From Sedimentisphaerales bacterium (GTDB lineage: Bacteria > Planctomycetota > Phycisphaerae > Sedimentisphaerales > SM23-30): a DNA stretch of 64,000 bases. The notes below the pieces were generated by a model. It did no database searches. It was not told the origin of the DNA and worked only from the letters and a program-made list of their open reading frames with translations. Every line of letters begins with the position of its first letter. Positions within the stretch are counted from its first letter, which is position 1. A program made the translations under genes and the position numbers. The stretch is taken from assembly GCA_963663965.2 (NCBI GenBank), contig CAXXFK010000027.1:1-64000 (forward strand), written 5' to 3'. Positions 9,530 through 21,460 of the stretch are shown one piece after another.

Positions 9530-9873
9530 ACTCTCACTAATAGTATTGCCACATAATACCAGCGGGCATATTGCGGGATTTGTCCTTAGCATGATATACT
9601 GATTGCAGCACCTCCTCTGGAGCGATTCACAAGGGTAACGTTTTTTCTCATGAATCAAAATCTGCTTTAAAGCCAGTTGATGGCTGTTGTTATAGCTATA
9701 TTTTTTGACGTTGGCTTCGTTTCGTTTGGTAATGGTATTCGCTGCGCTCATGGCTTTTTTCCTTTCTCTTTTGCGAGAAAACCTGTCGGTACGGCTCGGA
9801 GAGGCGGGGGTTAATTTTATCACGCTGAACTCCGTACGTTATTATTGAGCGTGGGCGGTGGCCGGCCTGTGTT

Positions 9874-10539
9874 TTAGTAGTGACGGCATTGGAGGGTGGT
9901 GTCGGTTGGGGTGTCCTGGGAATTTTCTGCCAGCGTGAATTGTTTTAAGTCATTGTTATAATTGTGGTTATAGTCGTAAATGCCGACATTGGGTTCGTTT
10001 CGCATTGGAGGGTAATCGGATTGGGTTTCCCGATAGATCGGGATTTCGCTGTGCTCAACGTTTAGTGTTGGTGGGCTTTCGGGTTCGTTGTCTGGTTCGG
10101 GGGTGGCGTTGGGGTCGCATTGGATGACGGGGGTGATCTGGTAGCCGGCTTCGAAGAGGATTTCTTTGGATTGCTGGATGATCTGCTGGTATTCCAGGTC
10201 GGTGGGCGGGCCATCGGGGAGGCAATCTTTGAAGGAGTTGGAAACGGTGATGAATTGCTGGATGAGTTGGGCAGTAGCGCGGCGGGCGGTGACGTTGTTG
10301 TCGGAGCGGGACTGGACGACGAGCCGTTGGAGGGCCTGGTGGCCGGCGCGGGTGGCGCGGAGTTTGTAGTCGCGGCGGTCGTAGGCGATGAGGCCGGCCA
10401 GTTCGCAGTGGTAGGAGTGGGTGTCGATGATATATTGATGCTGGCGGCGGGTGGTATTGATGGTGGCGAGGAACAGGTTGTTGATTTCGGGGCGGTGGTA
10501 GTATTGGGCGCGGGCGAGAATTTGCATGGAACGATTCAT
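9874..10539 (-). CDS. Hypothetical protein (221 aa) with a C-terminal RNEPN motif
   Basis: ATG at 10539 is preceded by a GAGGTG RBS. The same start and RBS are conserved in a second, decayed copy at 12191. The longer ORF from 10923 runs through the repeat array and is probably spurious. Confidence 0.55.
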   Translation of the reverse strand: MNRSMQILARAQYYHRPEINNLFLATINTTRRQHQYIIDTHSYHCELAGLIAYDRRDYKLRATRAGHQALQRLVVQSRSDNNVTARRATAQLIQQFITVSNSFKDCLPDGPPTDLEYQQIIQQSKEILFEAGYQITPVIQCDPNATPEPDNEPESPPTLNVEHSEIPIYRETQSDYPPMRNEPNVGIYDYNHNYNNDLKQFTLAENSQDTPTDTTLQCRHY

Positions 10540-10685
10540 GGATTCACCTCTTATTCTGTAGAACAAATTAAAAAAACATTCTGAGTTTGACCGTTGGTGG
10601 CCGACTGTTGGGATTATAGGTTGTATTTCAATAATAGTCAAATAAATAATAATATTAATTGCAATAAATACATAATATAAGAAAA

Positions 10686-10951
10686 TTTCACCGTGAAGTA
10701 AGTGAAGGGAGTGAAGAAACAGCCGGAGAGATGAGAAATATATAACGGCCGATAAAACCGCAGATCCCGATGTACATCGGGACAGATAGACGCAGATAAA
10801 AAACGTGGTTAAGTAATTGATAAATAATAAGATATAACCACTGAAAGACACAGGGCGGTCAAGCCGCAACCAAATAAGAAATAGTTCACACAAAGCCGCA
10901 AAGCCACGAAGATAAACAGCCATTTAGACAGGATCACAGGATCAACAGGAT
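10686..10951 (+). repeat. Mosaic repeat array 1 (module order C-A-B-F-D)
   Basis: GTGAAG x3 (10686), GCAGAT x3 (10756), AACCACTGAA (10836), CAAAG-type x3 (10885) and ACAGGAT x3 (10923), separated by AT-rich spacers. Confidence 0.85.
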
Positions 10952-11400
10952 AAAAAGTTCGGGACCATTAAAATATCTTGTAAGATGAAGTAATTACTTC
11001 GCTTATAAAACATAAGAACAAAAAGCTTGCTAAGAAAACAAAGAAATAAAGGATTGTAGTACAGAGGGTGCGGATTTTACTGATATTATTGCCCGGTTGA
11101 TCTTCTCAATTGTTCATAGTATGATCAGGTAGGAACCGCCGAATGAATACGCCCTGAAGCGGGAACTCTGAACGGCTTATGAACAGGTACCGAGATGTGG
11201 TGGTTATGGCGGGAAACCCATAAGGAATTTCACTATTGCTGATTGATATTCAGATAATAATGCCATAAAATATTTCTTTAATTGTATATGACACCAGTGA
11301 GCGGCGTTTTTGGCCGTAAACTCACTAGAAATTTATCATTGATTTAACGAGTGGCAACATAGCAACCCTATTCTATAAGATCACACCTTCGTTTTTACGA

Positions 11401-12087
11401 ATGCCCGCCAAAAAGCTGTTTTTCTGGGGCAGGAAGCGGTATTGCCCGGTCTGCCAGAGCGGGGTCAGGCGATTTCTGGATTCGGGTCATCCGCCCCGGC
11501 CCGATATTCGATGCCCGGTCTGCTTTTCGCTGGTTCGACATCGGTTCGAATGGTTGTTTTTTTTGAAGCGCACCACTCTGTTTGACGGCCGCCCCAGGAA
11601 GATTCTGCATGTGGCGGCTGAAGAAAACTTCGAACGACAATTCAAGCAGTATCGCCAGTTCGAGTATCTGACGGCCGATCTCTACCAGGCCAATGCCATG
11701 CTCAAAATGGATATTACCGATATCCAGTTTCCCGATAACAGTTTCGATGTTATTATCTGCAATCATGTCTTTGAACATGTCGAAGATGACGTTCAGGCCA
11801 TGCGGGAGTTTAACCGGGTGATCAGGCCGGAAGGCTGGATTATCATCTCCGTGCCGATTACCGCAGAACGCACCTTTGCAGACCCCAACGCGAAAACGCC
11901 CGAAGATCGATTGCGAATCTATGGCCAGGAAGATCATGTACGCCAATACGGCCTGGATGTGGAAGAGCGGCTAGCGCAGGCCGGCGGAAAGGTACAGGCC
12001 GTCTATCCGGCGGACTTCCTGACGCCCCAAATGGCTGAGCGGTGCCGGACGGGTGGAGAGCCGTTGTTTTTCTGTAAAAAATGCTGA
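11401..12087 (+). CDS. Class I SAM-dependent methyltransferase (Methyltransf_11-like) with N-terminal CxxC..CxxC
   Basis: CPVC...CPVC, ILHVAAE, MDITDIQFPDNSFDVIICNHVFEHV and RVIRPEG. Confidence 0.85.
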   Translation: MPAKKLFFWGRKRYCPVCQSGVRRFLDSGHPPRPDIRCPVCFSLVRHRFEWLFFLKRTTLFDGRPRKILHVAAEENFERQFKQYRQFEYLTADLYQANAMLKMDITDIQFPDNSFDVIICNHVFEHVEDDVQAMREFNRVIRPEGWIIISVPITAERTFADPNAKTPEDRLRIYGQEDHVRQYGLDVEERLAQAGGKVQAVYPADFLTPQMAERCRTGGEPLFFCKKC

Positions 12088-12191
12088 ATGATATTTTGGG
12101 TACCAGGTTGGCCAATTGACGCAGTTAGTATTGATTGATGGTGGCGAGGATAGTATTGGCCGCGGGCGAGAATTTGCATGGAACGATTCAT
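12085..12191 (-). pseudogene. Truncated, decayed second copy of the 9874-10539 gene
   Basis: MNRSMQILARGQYY here versus MNRSMQILARAQYY in the first copy. The upstream region 12144-12490 aligns with 10492-10850. An internal deletion is followed by loss of similarity. Confidence 0.65.
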
Positions 12192-12340
12192 GGTTTCACC
12201 TCTTTGTCTGGAGACCAAATTAATAAAAAAATACTTTGAGTTTGACCGTTGGCGGCCGACTGTTGGGATTATAGGCTATATTTCAATAATAGCCAAATAA
12301 AATATAATATTATATGGAAATAATACGTGATATGAGAATA

Positions 12341-12950
12341 TTTCACCATGAAGATATTGAAGGGCATGAAGGGAAGAGGAAGAATTAACAGCCGGTTTAT
12401 CCGCAGATGGACTCAGATGGACACAGATAAATAAAGATATAAGTTATTAAAAAAAAAGAAGATATGACCACGGAACACACGGAACACACGGAAGAAATCA
12501 GGGATAAGTTATTGAATTTGAAAAGAAGGTATGGGCAAGAGATTTATTGAATAAGCGAATAAGGGTGGCTGCGCCACGATTTAAATTATTAAAGGCAGGG
12601 GTTAACCACGAAGCGCCTGCGGCTTCACGAAGGGTGTCCTCCTGAGGCGGATCTTTCGACCTACGGCGCTACACGAAGGTTAAGAAAAAAATATAACGGC
12701 CGTTTGAACCGCAGATGGACGCAGATGAACGCAGATAAAAAATGATTTAAGTAATTATAATAAAATAACTTAGAACCACGGAAAAACGCGGAAAGACACT
12801 GAAGAAGAAAATAAAATACATTATCACCGTGGAGTAAGTGGAGGGAGTCCCGATGAATATCGGGATAAATTCCGGAACGGGTGGGGAATGCTGGGAGGGG
12901 GAAAAGTGGCTGGGGTTGGGTGGGGAATGGTGTGGGGGTTGGAGTTGGGG
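12341..12950 (+). repeat. Mosaic repeat array 2 (C-A-B-G-A-B-C-palindrome-G-tract)
   Basis: Modules at 12341, 12399, 12466, 12602, 12707, 12774 and 12822; palindrome at 12848-12865; G-runs at 12879-12950. Confidence 0.85.
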
Positions 12951-13197
12951 TATAAAAGAATTGACAGGAAATGCTATCGGTGTAAGATTTTATTTTGAAT
13001 GGCGTTATGGAATTGAGTGTTTTGAATTGGAACATTTTTTGGAGTGGATGGCATGGTTAAGAGTGTTTTCAAACAATCGGAAAAGACGGCCAGCGATAGT
13101 ATCAGAGGGGAAATCAATAAACCCAATATCAACGTTTCAGTCATGGGAGGAATTTATTGTTTCACTCAATGGCAGGTGTTTATTTCGCGTTTTACAT

Positions 13198-13226
13198 TTG
13201 CCTCCTGTGGATTCATGATATATACT
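13198..13226 (+). promoter_or_regulatory. Sigma70-type promoter for the ncRNA-abiF unit
   Basis: TTGCCT (13198-13203), 17-nt spacer, TATACT (13221-13226). Confidence 0.7.
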
Positions 13227-13232
13227 ATGGGT

Positions 13233-13291
13233 AACACACCTGCCGCACCGCTCCCCGTATTGGGTGACGTGCATCATGGGCAGGTTTTTTT
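13233..13291 (+). ncRNA. Putative AbiF-associated structured RNA (candidate antitoxin) or terminator-like leader
   Basis: Nested stems ACCTGCC/GGCAGGT, GCAC/GTGC and CCC/GGG followed by T7. It lies between the promoter and the GGAGG RBS of an Abi_2 gene. Confidence 0.65.
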
Positions 13292-13315
13292 ATGCGCAAT
13301 GGGGCGGAGGCCGGT

Positions 13316-14224
13316 ATGAAGCAATATAAGCAAACTTATTCCAAGCCCTGGCTCTCTTTTGCCGATCAACTGCAATTATTACAGAGTCGCGGTCTGGTCA
13401 TAGCTGACCATCAACAGGCGGAAGCGTTTCTGGCGCATATTAATTATTATCGCTTCAGCGGTTATTGTCTGGCATTTGAATCGAAACGGCATACATTTCA
13501 ACCCAATACCTGTTTTGAAAATATCGTTGCCGCCTATGAATTTGACAGGCGACTACGGAGTCTTATTGCCCAGGCTACGGCTGTCGTCGAGATCGATATC
13601 CGCACAGTTATTGCTCATCATTTCGGCAGTCGGTACGGCGCTTTTGGCCATACTCAGGCAGGGAATTTCTTTAAAAAATTTGATCATGGGCAGTGGATTA
13701 TAAAACTTCAAGAGGAGGCGGACAGGTCGCGAGAACCCTTTGTCGAACATTTTAAAAACAAATACCAAGAATATCCGGATCTGCCGATCTGGGTTATTAC
13801 CGAAATCATGTCCTTTGGGTCACTTTCGAAAATGTTCAGCGGCATGAACAGGGCCGATCAGCGATCTATTACTCAGCAATATCGACTTCAACCTTTTGTC
13901 ATGAGTTCATGGCTGCATCATCTGGTTTATATTCGCAATATCTGCGCCCATCACAGCAGACTCTGGGACAGGATCTGGGCCATTAAGCCGGAACTGCCCG
14001 CCGGGAAGAACTGGCAGCCGCCGAGCTTCAATAACAACAACCGGGTTTTCACTACGATCGTAATTTTAAAATATCTTCTAGATAAATGCCCGGTTATGGC
14101 CGGCTATGCTAATGACTGGAAGTTGGATATACAGGACTTGCTGGGCAATCTTCCGGCGGCCCGTAACGCCGACAATCTTCTGGGATTGGAAACAAACTGG
14201 CTGGAACATCCGCTCTGGAATTAA
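13316..14224 (+). CDS. Abi_2 (AbiD/AbiF)-family HEPN abortive-infection protein
   Basis: KPWLSFADQLQLLQSRGL, INYYRFSGY, YEFDRRLR, LPIWVITEIMSFGSLSK and the HEPN RxxxxH motif RNICAHHSRLW. RBS GGAGG at 13306. Confidence 0.92.
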   Translation: MKQYKQTYSKPWLSFADQLQLLQSRGLVIADHQQAEAFLAHINYYRFSGYCLAFESKRHTFQPNTCFENIVAAYEFDRRLRSLIAQATAVVEIDIRTVIAHHFGSRYGAFGHTQAGNFFKKFDHGQWIIKLQEEADRSREPFVEHFKNKYQEYPDLPIWVITEIMSFGSLSKMFSGMNRADQRSITQQYRLQPFVMSSWLHHLVYIRNICAHHSRLWDRIWAIKPELPAGKNWQPPSFNNNNRVFTTIVILKYLLDKCPVMAGYANDWKLDIQDLLGNLPAARNADNLLGLETNWLEHPLWN

Positions 14225-14280
14225 GGGGAATCATTTTGACAATCAAAACGATAAATAATGGGCTTATCATCAATAACCCA

Positions 14281-14990
14281 GGGCGGTCAAGCTGATTCAA
14301 AGAAGAAATAGTTCACAAAAAGCCGCAAAGATATTTTGAAGGTTAACAGCCATTTAGACAGGATCATCACGATAGATCGGGACTTTCAGCCGATTGACAG
14401 GATTTAATGGGAATTTATATAAAATATAACAGCTGTTTGAACCGCAGATGAACGCAGATAGACGCAGATGAAAACTGGTTTAAGTAATTATAATAAAATA
14501 AGATAGAACCACGGAAAAACGCGGAAAGGCACGGGAGGGGGAAAAGTGGCTGCGCCACGGGTTAAGTTTTTTAAAGGCAGGATTTTACCACAGAGGTTAG
14601 GAGGGCACAGAGGATGGCTGAGGGGTTATTATGGAACAGGGAAGAATAAAGCATTTTAGACAGGATCACAGGATATACAGGATTAAATGGGAATTCATAT
14701 AAAATATGACGGCCGTTTGAACCGCAGATGGACGCAGATGGACGCAGATAAAAGATTAGTTAAGTTATTGAAATATAATAAGATAGAACCACGGAAAAAC
14801 GCGGAAAGACACGGAAGGGGAAAATAAAATTCATTTTCACCGTGGAGGAAGTGAAGGGAGTCCCGATGAATATCGGGATAAATTCCGGAACGGGTGGGGA
14901 ATGATGGGAGGGGGAAAAGTGGCTGGGCCTGGAGTTGATTTTTTGAAGGCGGGGATTTACCACAGAGGTTGGGAGGGCATAGAGGGTAAT
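14281..14990 (+). repeat. Mosaic repeat array 3 (F-D-A-B-E-D-A-B-C-palindrome-G4-E)
   Basis: Modules at 14312, 14353, 14440, 14507, 14584, 14655, 14720, 14787, 14835 and 14956. The D-A-B block is duplicated internally in tandem. Confidence 0.85.
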
Positions 14991-16056
14991 GGCCGGGGGT
15001 TATTAACCGTATCTAAACAAAGCTGCAAGACAACTGATTTTATACATAGTCAAAATGGATATAGTCAAATAGTCGAATGATCTTGGGGGAATCTGAATTT
15101 CGGTTTATTATTAGTAATGAAAAAAATGAGATTGAATCTAATTTAAGTTGGGTTAAAATATCTTTATGAAGGTTATTTCAATTTTTACGAGAATCGATTA
15201 ATGAAAGGAACTAACATATTGGTCGCAGACAATTTTAAATATCTTAAATATTTACTTATCTCGATAGATTAAATAAGAGGTAAATAATGCCCAATCATTG
15301 GGATGAGGAAATATTTCATAAAGTTTTAGATCAACTATGCAAAGGTGATCTATATTTATTTGCTGGTGCTGGTCTATCAATGATAGCAGGAATGCCAAGT
15401 TGGAATACTTTAATTGGGAAATTCGCTGATGCGTACATAAAACAAGCTGTAGATCAGGGGCTAGCTGAAGATATTAAAAGGATGGCTAAGGATGATGGTT
15501 TGGACACTAGGGATCGTTTGGGTATTGTCTCGCATCTCATAGGCCTCGGCAATAAAGGCCAAGACGATTTAGCCAATATTTTAAGTGATTCTTTAAAGAT
15601 TACAAATTATCAAGCTCTTGAAATTCATGAAAAATTACTTAAGCTACCTTTCAAAGGGTATATTACCACGAATTATGATTTATGTTTTGAAGAAGCAACA
15701 AAAAAATATAATTGCCAGTATGAATTAATTGGCAACCGTTGGTTTGTATATCCGAAGCATCAATGTGCAAAAACTGATATTGAGGATCTACTTGCTAGCG
15801 AAATGTCCAATTTTCTCTTGCATATGCATGGTTGTCTTGAACATGAAGGTAGAGAAGATTTCGAAAATATTATTTTATCACCCGAACAATATTCGAAGCA
15901 CTATATTCGCGAACCTATGATAAAAAGAATTTTTGATCAAATGTTATTAAAACACATTTTGATACTTGGATGTAGTATGTCAGACCCATGGTTTATGCAT
16001 GAATTTCTAAGTATTAGAGGTGGAGAAAGTTTAAACAATGTACCCCTCCCCATTGT

Positions 16057-16983
16057 CTAGACAAAAATATTGACTTTCTTAGATGGAGTTATCGCCACGG
16101 TGGGGGCTGTCGCCCCGGAAGGAGCCCGGAGGGCGACTGGAGGGGCGACAGCCCCGGCGAACACCTCGGCCGGGGTAAGGTATCCCAGGGCCTCGTGCAG
16201 CCGTTCATGATTGTAAAACTCAAAATAGCGGCCCAGGCCTAACACCGCCTCGGCCACCGTCTGGTAATCTCGCAGATAGACCTCCTCCACCTTGACCGAA
16301 CGCCATAACCGTTCGACAAATATGTTGTCAAATACCCGGCCCCGGCCATCCATGCTGATTAAAATCCCGGCATCTTTCAAGGGCCGGATAAAATCCACTG
16401 ATGTAAATTGGCTGCCCTGATCCGTATTGAAGATCTCCGGGGTGCCCTGGCCCAGCGCCTGCTCCAACGCCGATACGCAAAAATCGGCCTCCAGCGTGAT
16501 CGAAACTTCCCAGCTTAACACATAACGGCTGAACCAATCCATGACCGCCGTTAAGTACACCCAGCCCTGAGACATGCGGATATAGGTAATATCGGTCGAC
16601 CAGACCTGGTTCGGCCGGGTAACCACCACCCCATCAAGCAGGTAGGGATAAATCTTGTGGGCCGGGTCCGGTTGGCTCAAATGCCGCTTAACGCGCGGAT
16701 AAATCGCTTCTAAGCCCATCAGCCGGAGCAAACGGCGCACGCGCTTCGGATTGACGATGTGGCCTTGACGACGCAGCCACTGCGTCATCTTGTCAACCCC
16801 GTAACAAGGGGTTTTGAGGTATTGTTCATCCAATAGCCGCATCAGACTCTCATGGTACTCCGTGTCCCGGCAGGGACGATAATAGTAACTACTGCGGGCC
16901 AGGCCCAGCAGTTCACACTGACGATCGATCGGAATCCGGGGATGGCCCGGCTCTATCGCCAGGCGCTTCTGCTCAAGTGTCAA
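16057..16983 (-). CDS. IS3 transposase OrfB (rve DDE domain)
   Basis: WSTDITYI, FNTDQGSQF, DNIFVERLWRSVKVE and YNHERLH. Confidence 0.95.
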   Translation of the reverse strand: MTLEQKRLAIEPGHPRIPIDRQCELLGLARSSYYYRPCRDTEYHESLMRLLDEQYLKTPCYGVDKMTQWLRRQGHIVNPKRVRRLLRLMGLEAIYPRVKRHLSQPDPAHKIYPYLLDGVVVTRPNQVWSTDITYIRMSQGWVYLTAVMDWFSRYVLSWEVSITLEADFCVSALEQALGQGTPEIFNTDQGSQFTSVDFIRPLKDAGILISMDGRGRVFDNIFVERLWRSVKVEEVYLRDYQTVAEAVLGLGRYFEFYNHERLHEALGYLTPAEVFAGAVAPPVALRAPSGATAPTVAITPSKKVNIFV

Positions 16984-17263
16984 GCCCGGATTTTTTTTTA
17001 AGCCAGTCCAACTCCATCGTGAGTTGGCCGATCTGCTGATATAACTGATCCACCAAAGCCTGCTGCTCGCGCTGATCCTGGTGGCGCCTCAGAGAAAAGA
17101 TCTCCGGCAAGGCATTCAAAAGCTCCTTTTTCCACTGGGTAACCTGAGTCGGGTGTACCTGGTAAACCTTGGCCAACTCCGCCAGCGTCTTGTCGCCCTT
17201 CAGGGCGGCCAGGGCCACTTTCGCCTTAAACTGGGCACTGTGATTTCGCCGTTTGCCTTTCAT
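16973..17263 (-). CDS. IS3 transposase OrfA (HTH)
   Basis: HSAQFKAKVAL...LYQQIGQL..ELDWLKKKS. An A9 slippery run at 16991-16999 could drive -1 frameshift fusion to OrfB. Confidence 0.93.
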   Translation of the reverse strand: MKGKRRNHSAQFKAKVALAALKGDKTLAELAKVYQVHPTQVTQWKKELLNALPEIFSLRRHQDQREQQALVDQLYQQIGQLTMELDWLKKKSGLDT

Positions 17264-17560
17264 TAAAACTGTCTCCTGAATACGAATTATTCAATCGGTT
17301 CAGGCGGCAATTCCATCTAAAAATCACCGTTTTTTTGTCCAGTTTTTGGGGAGTATTATACAATAGGAGAAATAGAAAAGAATGCTATATCGTCGAACTT
17401 TGCCAAGAAAATACTAACCTATATGAGAGGCATAAAGAGATTACTTATGGAATTAAATATCAGAAAATACAAGACAGAGAAAATGGTTTAAAAAATATGA
17501 TCAATGAATTATATGATGAATACGCAAAAAGAACTTCAGGTATAAGCAAGGGAATTGCTG

Positions 17561-20434
17561 ATGGCAGCGAACTACTTTAATAGGCTATTTAAACTTTTTT
17601 CGCTATCAGAATTGGAAAATCCAACACCAGATAATTCAACTATGTGGTTTGAGTTATTGGATGATAACCCCAATTTACAGCGAGAAGCATATTCGGCTAA
17701 TAAGAATCCAGCCTGGTTAAGTCATTTTGTTGAAGCCGGTCTTTTTACGCAAATCCCAAATGCAGAAAAAGAGGGTGACAATACGATTTATCGTAGATAT
17801 TTACCTTTAATTTATTTAAAGAATATTGCCAGCCAAGAGCCAGAGGCCGTTGTAGAGATTATCAATACGATCAAAACCGATAATATTCTGGATCATAAAA
17901 CCTGTTTGGAAGCGATTAATGAAATGCCTGCGGATATTGCCATAACGGCTATGCCATTTATTGACAGTCTTTTTTCGAGTTTAAATAAGATTGATAATTT
18001 GTTTCATGGAGATGAAATAAATAAATTGATAGGAAAGTTGAGTTCTGATTATCCTGAGGTCGCATTTAAATTAGCAGGTTATCTGATTCAATTTAAATCG
18101 GAAAGCCACAACTGGTATGAAGATAATACGAAATTAGAGAAATACTGGATTAAAGAATATATGCAAAAGCACTATTCCAAATTATGGCCAGTTGATCCAG
18201 TCAGAGGATTTGTGCAACTGGTTGATTTGATGTACGGTCATATCATTGATAGTAAGCAGACCGTTGAAGATGGGGATAAAACAACTTATTCTAATGCTTA
18301 TATACCAGATATAACAAACTCTGAATATTACAAAGATAACCCGATTAATATTATCATCAGCACTTTACATACCATCGGTGAAAGTTTGATAGCAGATATT
18401 GAAAAAGGGTTGTTTGCAATTGGTTATTTACTTTCGAAAGAAAAAGTGTTGTTTAAAAGGATTGTATTAACGCTTTTGGCTAAATCGCCCAACCATGATT
18501 TATTTAATTGCCTATTAGATTCCCTGATCATTGAACTGCTTGATAAAAATCGGCTTCGCCGATTTAAAAGAGAGCTATATGAGTGTGTCAATCAAAAACA
18601 TACGGTTCTGAGGCAAGAAACTTTAGATAAGATCAAGAATCAGATCAATATAATCGCTTATGACGACAAGGATCGAGAGCGTTATATTAATAATATTAAA
18701 GAATATGAGAGAAGAGATGTTGCCGATGAAGAATTACTGATTGACGAAGGGCGTTGCAGGGCACGATATTTTTATCCATTCAAGGAGGTGTTTAAAGAGG
18801 AATATGAGAAATATAAAACGATGGGGCAAGGTTCGGATGATGATTTTAAACCCAGGCCTCCATTTTCGAGTGGTATACGAGCGGTAAGCGGCGATGAATT
18901 CAGTCCTATTAAAAAGGATGATTTAATAGATAAATCTTTTTCAGAAATTATAAATATTATAAGTCAGTCCGAAAAGTGGCCTGAACCAAGAATGGTCATA
19001 GGCGATTCTTCTACGATTGAATTCGTAAGACGAGTTTTTAATAGTGTAGTCAGTCAAAGGGCAGATGAATTTGTTAACCTTAGTCAATCAGACATCGAAA
19101 GCATTCCATCCGATTTCATCTCGAGTTATTATGATGCGCTAGTGTTTTGTAATACGCTAGATTGGAAGAAAGTTGAGGATCCGGAAAAATTTATTAATTT
19201 AGGATTTATCTGTTTAGACAAAGATGAAATAAAGTTAGAAGATGTCCTGCTGAGCTTGTTTAGGATTTATGATAAAATTATTGAGGGTAAGGAGCCCGTA
19301 TTGATTTTGGATCAAGAAAAAGCAGTATCTATGCTTGAATTAGCACATAAATGTTTATCATTAGATTACAAACAGGTTGAATTTGATGATGCTTTGGCTA
19401 CCGGTCTCAATGACGCGAGAGGGCGGGCGGCCAGCTTGACTATTAAACTGGCATTGCGATTAAAGAACCAAAATCCGAATGATTATGAAAAAAGCAAATT
19501 CAGAAGTAAACTAATAGAAATATTGGATTTCATATTAAATCAATTGGGCGATCATGATGAAATCACGCAGAACTTCGGTCAGTATTTTATCAATATCTGC
19601 TGGCTGGAAGAGGATTGGGGCAGGGAAAATGCCAATAGAATATTTAATGATTTGGCAAATGCCGCATGGAAAGTTCATTTGAAATATGGTCGTTGTTCCC
19701 GGATCACGTTTGAGATAAATAAACAGCGCTATCAGGAAACTTATCGAATTATGAAATTGCACGATAATGGATTCAGCCATGACGGAATAGAGAATCATAT
19801 CATGCAAGCTTACTGGCAAGGATGGATTGATGTTGATGATCCAATCATTGCAGATATCAACCATTTACCGGCTCAAATGCTCAATAACTGTGCCGATTAT
19901 CTAGGGACTGGTTTTCAATTTATTAACAAGGGTGAAGCGCCTGAAGGGGCTTTAGAACGAGTTAAGAAATATTGGGAGTTCCGAATTGGTGAGTTGGAAA
20001 AAGAAGCCGATCATGATCGCTTAGTTGTTGAACTTAAAGCGTTTATGGAATGGCCAGAGAATAATCCATTTGATGTTGATTATTTATTCGACATGCTGAA
20101 TAAAACGATTGTTTTGTGGCATGAAGATATGAAAGACATGTGGGGAGCGCGGGCCTTTAAGGATTATCTGATAGATCATTTTGAAGAGCATCCAGAAAAG
20201 AGCATAGAATTGCTGTTAAAATTTGCGAAAATAAAACAGGGTTGTGATAATTTGCGGATGAAGACGATTGAATTACAAGAGATGCTGAATGCGATTGCTG
20301 ATCATCCAGATAAATACGGTCCGGTAGTGGTTGAGAAGGCATTAGAGTTGTGTGATCGGATGGGAGAAATGGAAACACAGGCGTATATGGATATTTATAA
20401 GAGACTATTACTGATAGTTGGTAGTGAAGAATAG
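17561..20434 (+). CDS. Large, likely alpha-helical protein coupled to the SIR2 gene; candidate defence sensor/partner
   Basis: 957 aa from ATG 17561, AT-rich, overlapping the SIR2 stop by 20 nt. No catalytic motif recognised. Confidence 0.75.
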   Translation: MAANYFNRLFKLFSLSELENPTPDNSTMWFELLDDNPNLQREAYSANKNPAWLSHFVEAGLFTQIPNAEKEGDNTIYRRYLPLIYLKNIASQEPEAVVEIINTIKTDNILDHKTCLEAINEMPADIAITAMPFIDSLFSSLNKIDNLFHGDEINKLIGKLSSDYPEVAFKLAGYLIQFKSESHNWYEDNTKLEKYWIKEYMQKHYSKLWPVDPVRGFVQLVDLMYGHIIDSKQTVEDGDKTTYSNAYIPDITNSEYYKDNPINIIISTLHTIGESLIADIEKGLFAIGYLLSKEKVLFKRIVLTLLAKSPNHDLFNCLLDSLIIELLDKNRLRRFKRELYECVNQKHTVLRQETLDKIKNQINIIAYDDKDRERYINNIKEYERRDVADEELLIDEGRCRARYFYPFKEVFKEEYEKYKTMGQGSDDDFKPRPPFSSGIRAVSGDEFSPIKKDDLIDKSFSEIINIISQSEKWPEPRMVIGDSSTIEFVRRVFNSVVSQRADEFVNLSQSDIESIPSDFISSYYDALVFCNTLDWKKVEDPEKFINLGFICLDKDEIKLEDVLLSLFRIYDKIIEGKEPVLILDQEKAVSMLELAHKCLSLDYKQVEFDDALATGLNDARGRAASLTIKLALRLKNQNPNDYEKSKFRSKLIEILDFILNQLGDHDEITQNFGQYFINICWLEEDWGRENANRIFNDLANAAWKVHLKYGRCSRITFEINKQRYQETYRIMKLHDNGFSHDGIENHIMQAYWQGWIDVDDPIIADINHLPAQMLNNCADYLGTGFQFINKGEAPEGALERVKKYWEFRIGELEKEADHDRLVVELKAFMEWPENNPFDVDYLFDMLNKTIVLWHEDMKDMWGARAFKDYLIDHFEEHPEKSIELLLKFAKIKQGCDNLRMKTIELQEMLNAIADHPDKYGPVVVEKALELCDRMGEMETQAYMDIYKRLLLIVGSEE

Positions 20435-20717: not shown

Positions 20718-20815
20718 CACGGACTTTCACGGACCGACACGGACTTTCACGGACTGGCACGGACATTACCCGGACGAACACGGACAGTTGCGGACGGACG
20801 CGGACTGGTACGGAT
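20718..20815 (+). repeat. Tandem repeat of CACGGAC-NNN, about 10 units with a 10-nt period
   Basis: cacggacttt cacggaccga cacggacttt cacggactgg cacggacatta cccggacgaa cacggacagt tgcggacgga cgcggactgg tacggat. Confidence 0.9.
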
Positions 20816-21460
20816 ATGCATCGGTTGGCGTGGGCCGTGATTAAGAGAATTGGATGAGGTGATGATGGCTGGCGATGAACATGGATTTATATTACCCCAT
20901 GGCGGGTATCGGAAGTTGAAGAGTTTTCAGATTGCCCGGCTGGTTTACGATGTAACGGTGCGGTTCTGTGAGCTTTATATCGACCGATTCAGCCGGACGA
21001 AGGATCAGATGGTGCAGGCGGCACGGAGCGGGGTGCAGAATATCGCCGAGGGTAGTGTGGCGAGCGGGACTTCGAAGAAAACGGAGATCAAACTGACCCA
21101 GGTGGCACGGGCCAGTCTGGAAGAGTTGCGGCTGGATTATGAAGATTTTCTCAGGCAGCGGAATCTGCCGAAGCTGGAGGCGGACGATCCGATATTGATG
21201 CGTTTTAAAGCGATGCGTTGCGCGACACTGGAACAGATACAGGCGTGAGTGGCGCGGGAGTTAGAGGGAGCAGGGAAGGACACGGACGAAAACCTGTCCG
21301 TGCAGGTCGGTGAGAGTCCGTGTGGGTCGGTGGGATCGGCGATGCTAGCGGCGAATGGGGCGTTGTCGCTTTTGAACCTGGTTGACCGGTTGCTGGGTCA
21401 ACAGATCAAAAGGCTGGAAGAGGATTTTCTGGAGCATGGGGGTTTGCATGAGCGTATGTA

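Follow-up and report, generated by a model that had tools for sequence, protein, structure and literature searches.

Short intergenic repeats that occur in hundreds, fall into several types and are each tied to the gene that they flank are described for the REP (repetitive extragenic palindrome) sequences, with their REPIN (REP doublet forming hairpins) and BIME (bacterial interspersed mosaic element) arrangements and the RAYT (REP-associated tyrosine transposase, TnpA-REP) genes, in the accessible parts of two papers (PMC3116915, PMC6006769). A second point of reference is the TAACTGA direct repeat of Beggiatoaceae, one heptamer that lies mostly just upstream of start codons and for which the accessible part of PMC4679880 proposes no partner enzyme. 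Here we compare with these systems a set of triple tandem-repeat modules that form three arrays in a 64,000-nucleotide stretch of DNA (the window; positions 1 to 64,000 of contig CAXXFK010000027.1, GenBank assembly GCA_963663965.2) from a Sedimentisphaerales bacterium, whose 7.24-Mb genome (G000) is assembled in 42 contigs with 5.43% contamination, the window being part of its contig C27. The modules are associated with genes of the GxxExxY family (TIGR04256/PF13366, PD-(D/E)XK fold), and we think it somewhat probable that the arrays are BIME-like mosaics of one-armed, REPIN-like elements that a PD-(D/E)XK partner would bind and mobilize. The findings hint at tiny mobile DNA of a type not yet described, and not at a dedicated gene-cassette shuffler.

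Triple-repeat modules in the window and across the genome

The original prediction, made from the letters of the window, had placed about 22 co-oriented modules of seven types (A to G) in three non-coding blocks. All seven unit types lie at the predicted positions or a few bases away, every one on the + strand, and 19 distinct modules were recovered in 10685-14969 by hidden Markov models (HMMs) built from genome-wide copies. The three that the HMMs missed (B10836, G12602 and C12822) are seen in the sequence, yet they are either cut short or interrupted by small palindromes; inserts are also present in A10756, D14353 and C14835. The blocks are composed as follows:

10685..10956, + strand: array block 1, with C 10685, A 10756 (palindromic insert), truncated B ~10836, F/G 10881 and D 10921
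12340..12870, + strand: array block 2, with C 12340, A 12394, B 12461, interrupted G ~12602-12678, A 12702, B 12770 and truncated C ~12822
14308..14990, + strand: array block 3, with F/G 14308, split D 14351-14408, A 14435, B 14503, E 14582, D 14654, A 14715, B 14783, C 14834 and E 14955

With a unit period of 8-10 nt (A 10, B 9/10, C 9, D 8/9, E 9, F/G 8), only type A fits the proposed phasing at about one helical turn, the other types having a shorter period, and the modules are not of the iteron or lambda attP arm-site kind, being of 8-10-nt period and not helically phased; neither a Rep protein nor a phage integrase was found among the 20 open reading frames (ORFs) scanned at positions 1-30880. 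The arrays were correctly set apart from CRISPR, since the spacers between modules are themselves repeated genome-wide; part 10840-11065 of block 1, for instance, recurs in >20 copies. Block 3 has no stable fold, its folding being no better than that of shuffled sequence (z -1.33).

Regular-expression searches found 212 modules in the genome vs 4 in a block-shuffled genome, and HMM searches at >=14 bits returned 304 matches vs 6 in the reversed genome, controls that exclude chance as the source of the modules. The 304 modules form 134 clusters, of which 73 hold more than one module, two mix strands and 132 lie outside called genes; this profile scan replaces the picture of a local system with that of a family dispersed over the genome. 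The rule that A is followed by B stands within the window (5/5) but holds for only 20/50 genome-wide. An exact B triple occurs in 28 copies here and in 0/120 other genomes of the order, which makes the expansion lineage-specific, while an A/H-type pattern was present in 5/5 genomes tested, at 2 to 141 copies, and the A-then-B pattern was found at 62 loci in other phyla.

Tiny palindromic inserts were noted in the window at 10766-10781, 12850-12865, 14861-14876, ~10854, ~12565 and ~14548. Within 100 nt of module clusters lie 20/26 palindromes of the form CCCGAT-n-ATCGGG and 25/31 of the GGGCGG-GCCGC type (~0.2 expected each), together with 20/29 of the GGCTGCGCC type (again ~0.2 expected). Tiny palindromic inserts in tandem repeats are reportedly among the small dispersed repeats of Nostoc treated by Elhai et al. 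in 2008, a parallel that serves as a lead only.

Module types match clades of GxxExxY genes

PF13366 is listed as a family of unknown function in the accessible part of PMC3424549, and a literature search that covered mainly open-access journals found no description linking GxxExxY to repeats. The family is present in 94/121 genomes of the order. When GxxExxY loci of other genomes were scanned with HMMs trained on G000, 20/110 carried a forward module upstream and an inverted module downstream, and all 20 pairs were of the same type. With looser two-unit patterns, 80/110 loci had matches on both flanks and 75/110 had same-type matches forward upstream and inverted downstream, while the converse placement was seen at 14/110 (forward downstream) and 12/110 (inverted upstream), against a background of 58 loose matches in 224,937 distant bases. 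The same framing was found at 51/80 further loci. The suggestion that modules be checked against GxxExxY genes was thus borne out.

Module type follows protein kinship. Among 80 relatives of a C-flanked G000 protein, all 58 that could be typed were E or G, and among 80 relatives of a B-flanked G000 protein 50/51 typed loci were B; type F was found at one GxxExxY locus only. A tree of 70 of the 137 GxxExxY proteins, drawn after random thinning of groups E, B and G, resolves into three clades that correspond to A/D(/H), B and E/G/C, and the unit endings divide in the same way (GAT for A/D, GAA for B, RAG for C/E/F/G). Nearest neighbours agreed in type in 54/54 cases for B, 62/62 for E/G/C and 9/9 for A/D. 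By framing and clade match, we read the seven module types as cognate end sequences of GxxExxY elements, and the earlier impression that they look like protein-recognition sites is supported.

G000 encodes five GxxExxY genes, spread over all three clades and none of them in the window. Three lie between direct same-type modules, and two of the B-clade genes retain forward arms only, on both sides, whereas B-clade relatives often have hairpins on both sides of the gene (forward downstream 36/80, inverted upstream 25/80). In G008, a genome of the same family, a GxxExxY gene is surrounded by a mixed, co-oriented array. Other genomes also contain gene-less hairpin doublets, including nested A>B..<B<A hairpins (loci L150, L174 and L207) and an (A-B)x5 tandem (L165). 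Removal of half of a nested hairpin would leave A followed by B at a fixed distance, which accounts for the A-B order. At G000:C30:140600-140680 an A module is followed by what appears, by eye, to be the cut-off start of another GxxExxY gene.

The modules are one-armed and follow GC skew

An inverted partner within 600 nt was found for at most 8/304 modules in G000. Of the 134 clusters, 126 lie on the G-rich strand, which we infer to be the leading strand, and 89 on the local coding strand; where clusters stand among opposite-strand genes, 40/45 still follow GC skew. With skew computed from third positions of opposite-strand genes only, 122/131 clusters fall on the G-rich strand, compared with 60% of genes. 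Two insertion sequence (IS) families in G000 are not clearly polar (5/8 and 6/9). Mutational erosion is an unlikely cause of the polarity, the AT skew on the G-rich strand being -0.016 and the modules A-rich. Palindrome deletion can be asymmetric and replication-biased, according to the available portion of PMC1851657, and IS200/IS605 transposition uses the lagging-strand template, according to that of PMC6006769; both processes predict polar modules.

GC skew changes sign many times within contigs C1, C20, C25 and C28 and along genome G121, and these switches suggest frequent inversions or mis-joins.

A divergent orphan gene heads two of the three blocks

Blocks 1 and 2 each open ~45 nt upstream of a promoter close to consensus, and the divergent orphan ORF that this promoter drives was missed in the original prediction:

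9874..10539, - strand: orphan ORF of 221 aa in this copy, pointing away from array block 1
10613..10641, - strand: promoter of the orphan ORF, sigma-70-like TTGACT-17-TATAAT, with 11/12 consensus matches
12131..12333, - strand: second copy of the orphan gene, reduced to a 5' remnant; promoter at 12268-12296

The genome holds 17 copies of this promoter/5' region, with the promoter found in 17/17 (<=2 mismatches) and a C-A head following in 13/17, module C lying ~45 nt upstream of the promoter. The orphan-gene head explains why two blocks open C-A-B. Eight copies are full length (261 aa), and a pN/pS of 0.32 over 10 copies indicates purifying selection on the frame; an overlapping + strand ORF at 10120-10584 was rejected (pN/pS 0.76, stops in 2/10 copies). 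The orphan has no Pfam or NCBIfam match and no recognizable catalytic family. A protein search gave three matches, all apparently from this genome itself, and so no convincing relative elsewhere; a profile search returned five matches (two of its own and three weak and partial), and 0/300 genomes of the class matched. Its Atlas scores were <0.9 and its AlphaFold model (pLDDT 36.9) was unusable. A recombinase role for the orphan thus has no support either way, given neither a family match nor a usable model.

Modules serve as crossover points in some cases

It had been proposed that the module types could act as a combinatorial code for capturing or shuffling cassettes, and a check for inverted copies closing each cassette had been suggested. 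Inverted copies do not close the cargo of the window, and the duplicated segments of the genome do not bear out the code: of 958 such segments, 83 touch modules in both copies, and the 19 rows left once orphan-gene rows are removed (partly redundant) include eight with one end in a module in both copies and none with a module at each end. The combinations of flank classes are tree-like, with one four-gamete quartet across all seven types. Where arrays share sequence, 87/376 of the 3' ends of the shared part fall at module 3' edges, vs 7% of bases (~three times expected), while 221/376 lie outside modules and 5' ends are barely enriched (35/300); one module-end junction is due to an IS110 insertion. 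Modules are therefore crossover points in some cases, and a dedicated shuffling code is not evident.

Among 110 ORFs downstream of modules, 55 have a Pfam assignment, of which 21 are defence, toxin, mobile or GxxExxY genes vs 34 others by our own grouping; the others include SAICAR synthetase, malate/lactate dehydrogenase and RNase R. This mixed set of neighbours and the spread of modules over the whole genome also count against a cassette code. Both copies (2/2) of an IS110-family element are inserted at the same position inside a type C module (G000:C30:154339-155999, locus L251, and G000:C23:62749-64409), which makes this module a candidate natural target of the IS110 bridge RNA. A 4.2-kb duplicated unit (G000:C11:17833-22050 = C30:155983-160216) opens with a C-A head and holds, besides an array, an RHS-core/Tox-REase-7 gene and a Y1 transposase; the same C-A head precedes an AHH nuclease gene at C22:70047-74750.

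A model for the arrays and its alternatives

In the model that we prefer, a GxxExxY protein would bind its own triple repeat and, acting in trans, would spread REPIN-like hairpin units, which would insert within one another as well as in AT-rich DNA between genes. Long palindromes formed in this way would be unstable at the replication fork and would lose the origin-distal arm, leaving co-oriented mixed arrays. These arrays, together with neighbouring DNA (notably the orphan gene with its promoter and C-A-B head), may then be copied by duplication or gene conversion, with crossovers favoured within shared modules. The defence genes between the blocks would not be cassettes whose ends are set by modules; they would be passengers in an island that is permissive and recombinogenic.

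Several points weigh against this model. The search for remnants of lost inverted arms found none (39/253 downstream vs 35/253 upstream, no excess over controls), so that arm loss is not distinguished from one-ended insertion, and no pair of empty and filled sites was found. The leading strand was assigned by GC skew, which switches often in this assembly of 42 contigs. Solo modules of G121 show a weaker bias (60/75, made up of 40/46 in windows chosen by B and 20/29 in those chosen by A), and within G000 a second dispersed repeat family (33/41) and the orphan gene (15/16) are likewise polar; such polarity, common to other repeat families of the genome, may be a genome-wide trend. The match between module type and clade does not amount to independent trials because kin share labels by descent, and the GxxExxY proteins have no solved relative.

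A bolder form of the model is possible, though we incline against it. Here the GxxExxY proteins would act as enzymes for a widespread and so far undescribed class of miniature mobile DNA. Their three clades would read three triple-repeat classes and would insert or resolve these repeats at the fork in one orientation; the one-armed arrays of this genome would then be live landing and crossover sites that import defence and toxin genes, with the orphan gene, the palindromic inserts and IS110 riding along.

Among the alternatives, fork-coupled one-ended integration survives best, and we consider it unlikely. In this account, a refined form of the original proposal, a trans-acting GxxExxY (or orphan) protein would place single ends, alone or together with adjacent DNA, beside existing modules on one replication strand, and the arrays would be a working platform for gene capture and reordering. 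Strand polarity and the missing trace of inverted arms agree with it, as do the 8/19 duplicated-segment rows with one end in a module in both copies, the enrichment of 3' homology ends at modules, the three G000 GxxExxY genes between direct same-type modules, the 21/55 assigned downstream genes that are defence, toxin or mobile (our own grouping) and the lagging-strand template use of IS200/IS605 (PMC6006769, in its accessible part). Against these stand the 0/19 rows with both ends in modules, the one four-gamete quartet, the 221/376 3' ends outside modules, the module-end junction that is an IS110 insertion and the lack of a recognizable catalytic family in the orphan.

Two further accounts are each improbable. 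If solo repeats were kept as regulatory binding sites in DNA or leader RNA, the intergenic position of 132/134 clusters, the orientation of 96/131 towards the next gene and the placement of module C ~45 nt upstream of the orphan promoter in 13/17 copies would be explained, and such a role is proposed for the TAACTGA repeats in the accessible part of PMC4679880. Orientation, however, tracks GC skew (126/134) better than gene direction (89/134), also among opposite-strand genes (40/45), start-codon distances vary widely, downstream genes share no function and the exact B pattern is in 0/120 other genomes of the order. The modules might instead be enzyme-free relics, ends left by GxxExxY genes and multiplied only by duplication or gene conversion that keeps replication orientation. 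Long shared array segments, tree-like flank combinations and the shared polarity of other repeat families are in keeping with such relics, but many modules have unique flanks on both sides, type-matched hairpin doublets exist in other genomes and all three cognate clades are kept here.

An assembly artefact of collapsed or mis-joined repeats is very hard to credit, for although no read record spans the region and contamination is 5.43%, module copies differ, unitigs join cargo to block edges without mismatch and mixed arrays recur in G008 and in unrelated genomes. Contigs from a public run, which may be the source sample, match 11558-12190 (methyltransferase gene and orphan remnant) and 12861-14526 (Abi gene and start of block 3) with no differing letter, and no record of that run spans the whole stretch. 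Joints in the public-run contigs fit other repeat copies and were not used as evidence of rearrangement.

On the preferred model and its evidence, the clade-to-repeat match offers short, specific and testable substrates for a very common protein family, the strand polarity makes a sharp prediction on fork coupling, and the arrays mark sites of defence-gene uptake and IS110 insertion in this genome.

Other features of the window

The genes between and after the blocks, and two neighbouring features, are:

11401..12087, + strand: class I SAM-dependent methyltransferase (Pfam Methyltransf_11), single copy in the genome
13292..14224, + strand: AbiD/AbiF-family abortive-infection gene (Pfam Abi_2, PADLOC AbiD), with a hairpin and T run upstream
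15287..16060, + strand: 5' part of a SIR2-domain anti-phage gene, which an IS3 copy interrupts at ~16057-17360
20718..21332, + strand: four-helix-bundle gene (20850-21248; TIGR02436), with its own inverted CACGGAC tandem repeats on both sides
9680..9830, - strand: copy of the second dispersed repeat family (NEPN-coding type), tied in several copies to the orphan gene 3' end

The cargo genes of the window are single-copy in the genome. tyrA-accA is conserved in eight genomes of the family, and the DNA fetched from them showed neither an array immediately behind accA nor the cargo of the window. The hairpin with its T run (13225-13300), directly 5' of the AbiD/F gene, is possibly an RNA antitoxin of that gene, as the original prediction held; Rfam gave no relevant match for it at E<=0.5. 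What had been called a SIR2 operon does contain a SIR2 gene, but it is a single gene cut by the IS3 copy. The ORF at 17555-20434 is probably its remainder; this 959-aa ORF of the SIR2 locus (15287-20434) has no Pfam match and only weak Cas1 scores in PADLOC.

The four-helix-bundle gene has 38-nt inverted arms (84% complementary). About ten CACGGAC-like repeats stand upstream of it and recur in inverted form on the downstream side, and the gene is an intact two-armed example of a layout similar to that of GxxExxY elements; the same layout with a different heptamer occurs at G000:C42:224568. The second repeat family gave 84 BLAST matches at 41 loci, and at L014:1500-5500 it forms tandem ~300-nt arrays with many small palindromes; the gene downstream of these arrays has a NAIKHG motif in its N-terminal part.

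Comparison with described systems

The window resembles an integron in that a divergent gene and promoter head the arrays and defence genes follow. Unlike an integron, it has no tyrosine recombinase (the head ORF has no Pfam or NCBIfam match) and no folded attC-like site, and its cargo is not delimited by one site per gene (0/19 rows bounded at both ends). The window differs from the GxxExxY loci themselves in holding module ends only, without the gene. With the TAACTGA repeats the modules share lineage-specific expansion and intergenic sets of direct repeats that are almost never inverted, as far as the accessible part of PMC4679880 describes them, but they differ in their seven types, mixed arrays and GC-skew orientation.

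Y1/RAYT-like genes were considered as partners and rejected: of 11 Y1 matches five were inspected and none was framed by modules, three having their own, different inverted ends and one a single G module upstream. Y1 genes on G000:C30, C11, C22 and C28 (e.g. L251:8363-9043) are RAYT-like and score below the NCBIfam RAYT cut-off.

The closest likeness in the comparison is to the REP/REPIN/BIME and RAYT systems, which share with the modules the features set out at the beginning and also hairpin doublets, singlets read as remnants, mosaic clusters and use as IS targets (PMC3116915, PMC6006769, in the parts accessible). The modules are non-palindromic triple tandem 8-10-mers, whereas the REP repeat is itself a short palindrome, and unlike REPINs their inverted doublets are rare in G000 (<=8/304 paired), though present in other genomes, the arrays being direct and strand-polar. 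Their partner is a PD-(D/E)XK protein and not an HUH/Y1 enzyme; if GxxExxY proteins do mobilize their repeats, they would form a counterpart of REP/RAYT in which a PD-(D/E)XK nuclease takes the place of the HUH enzyme.

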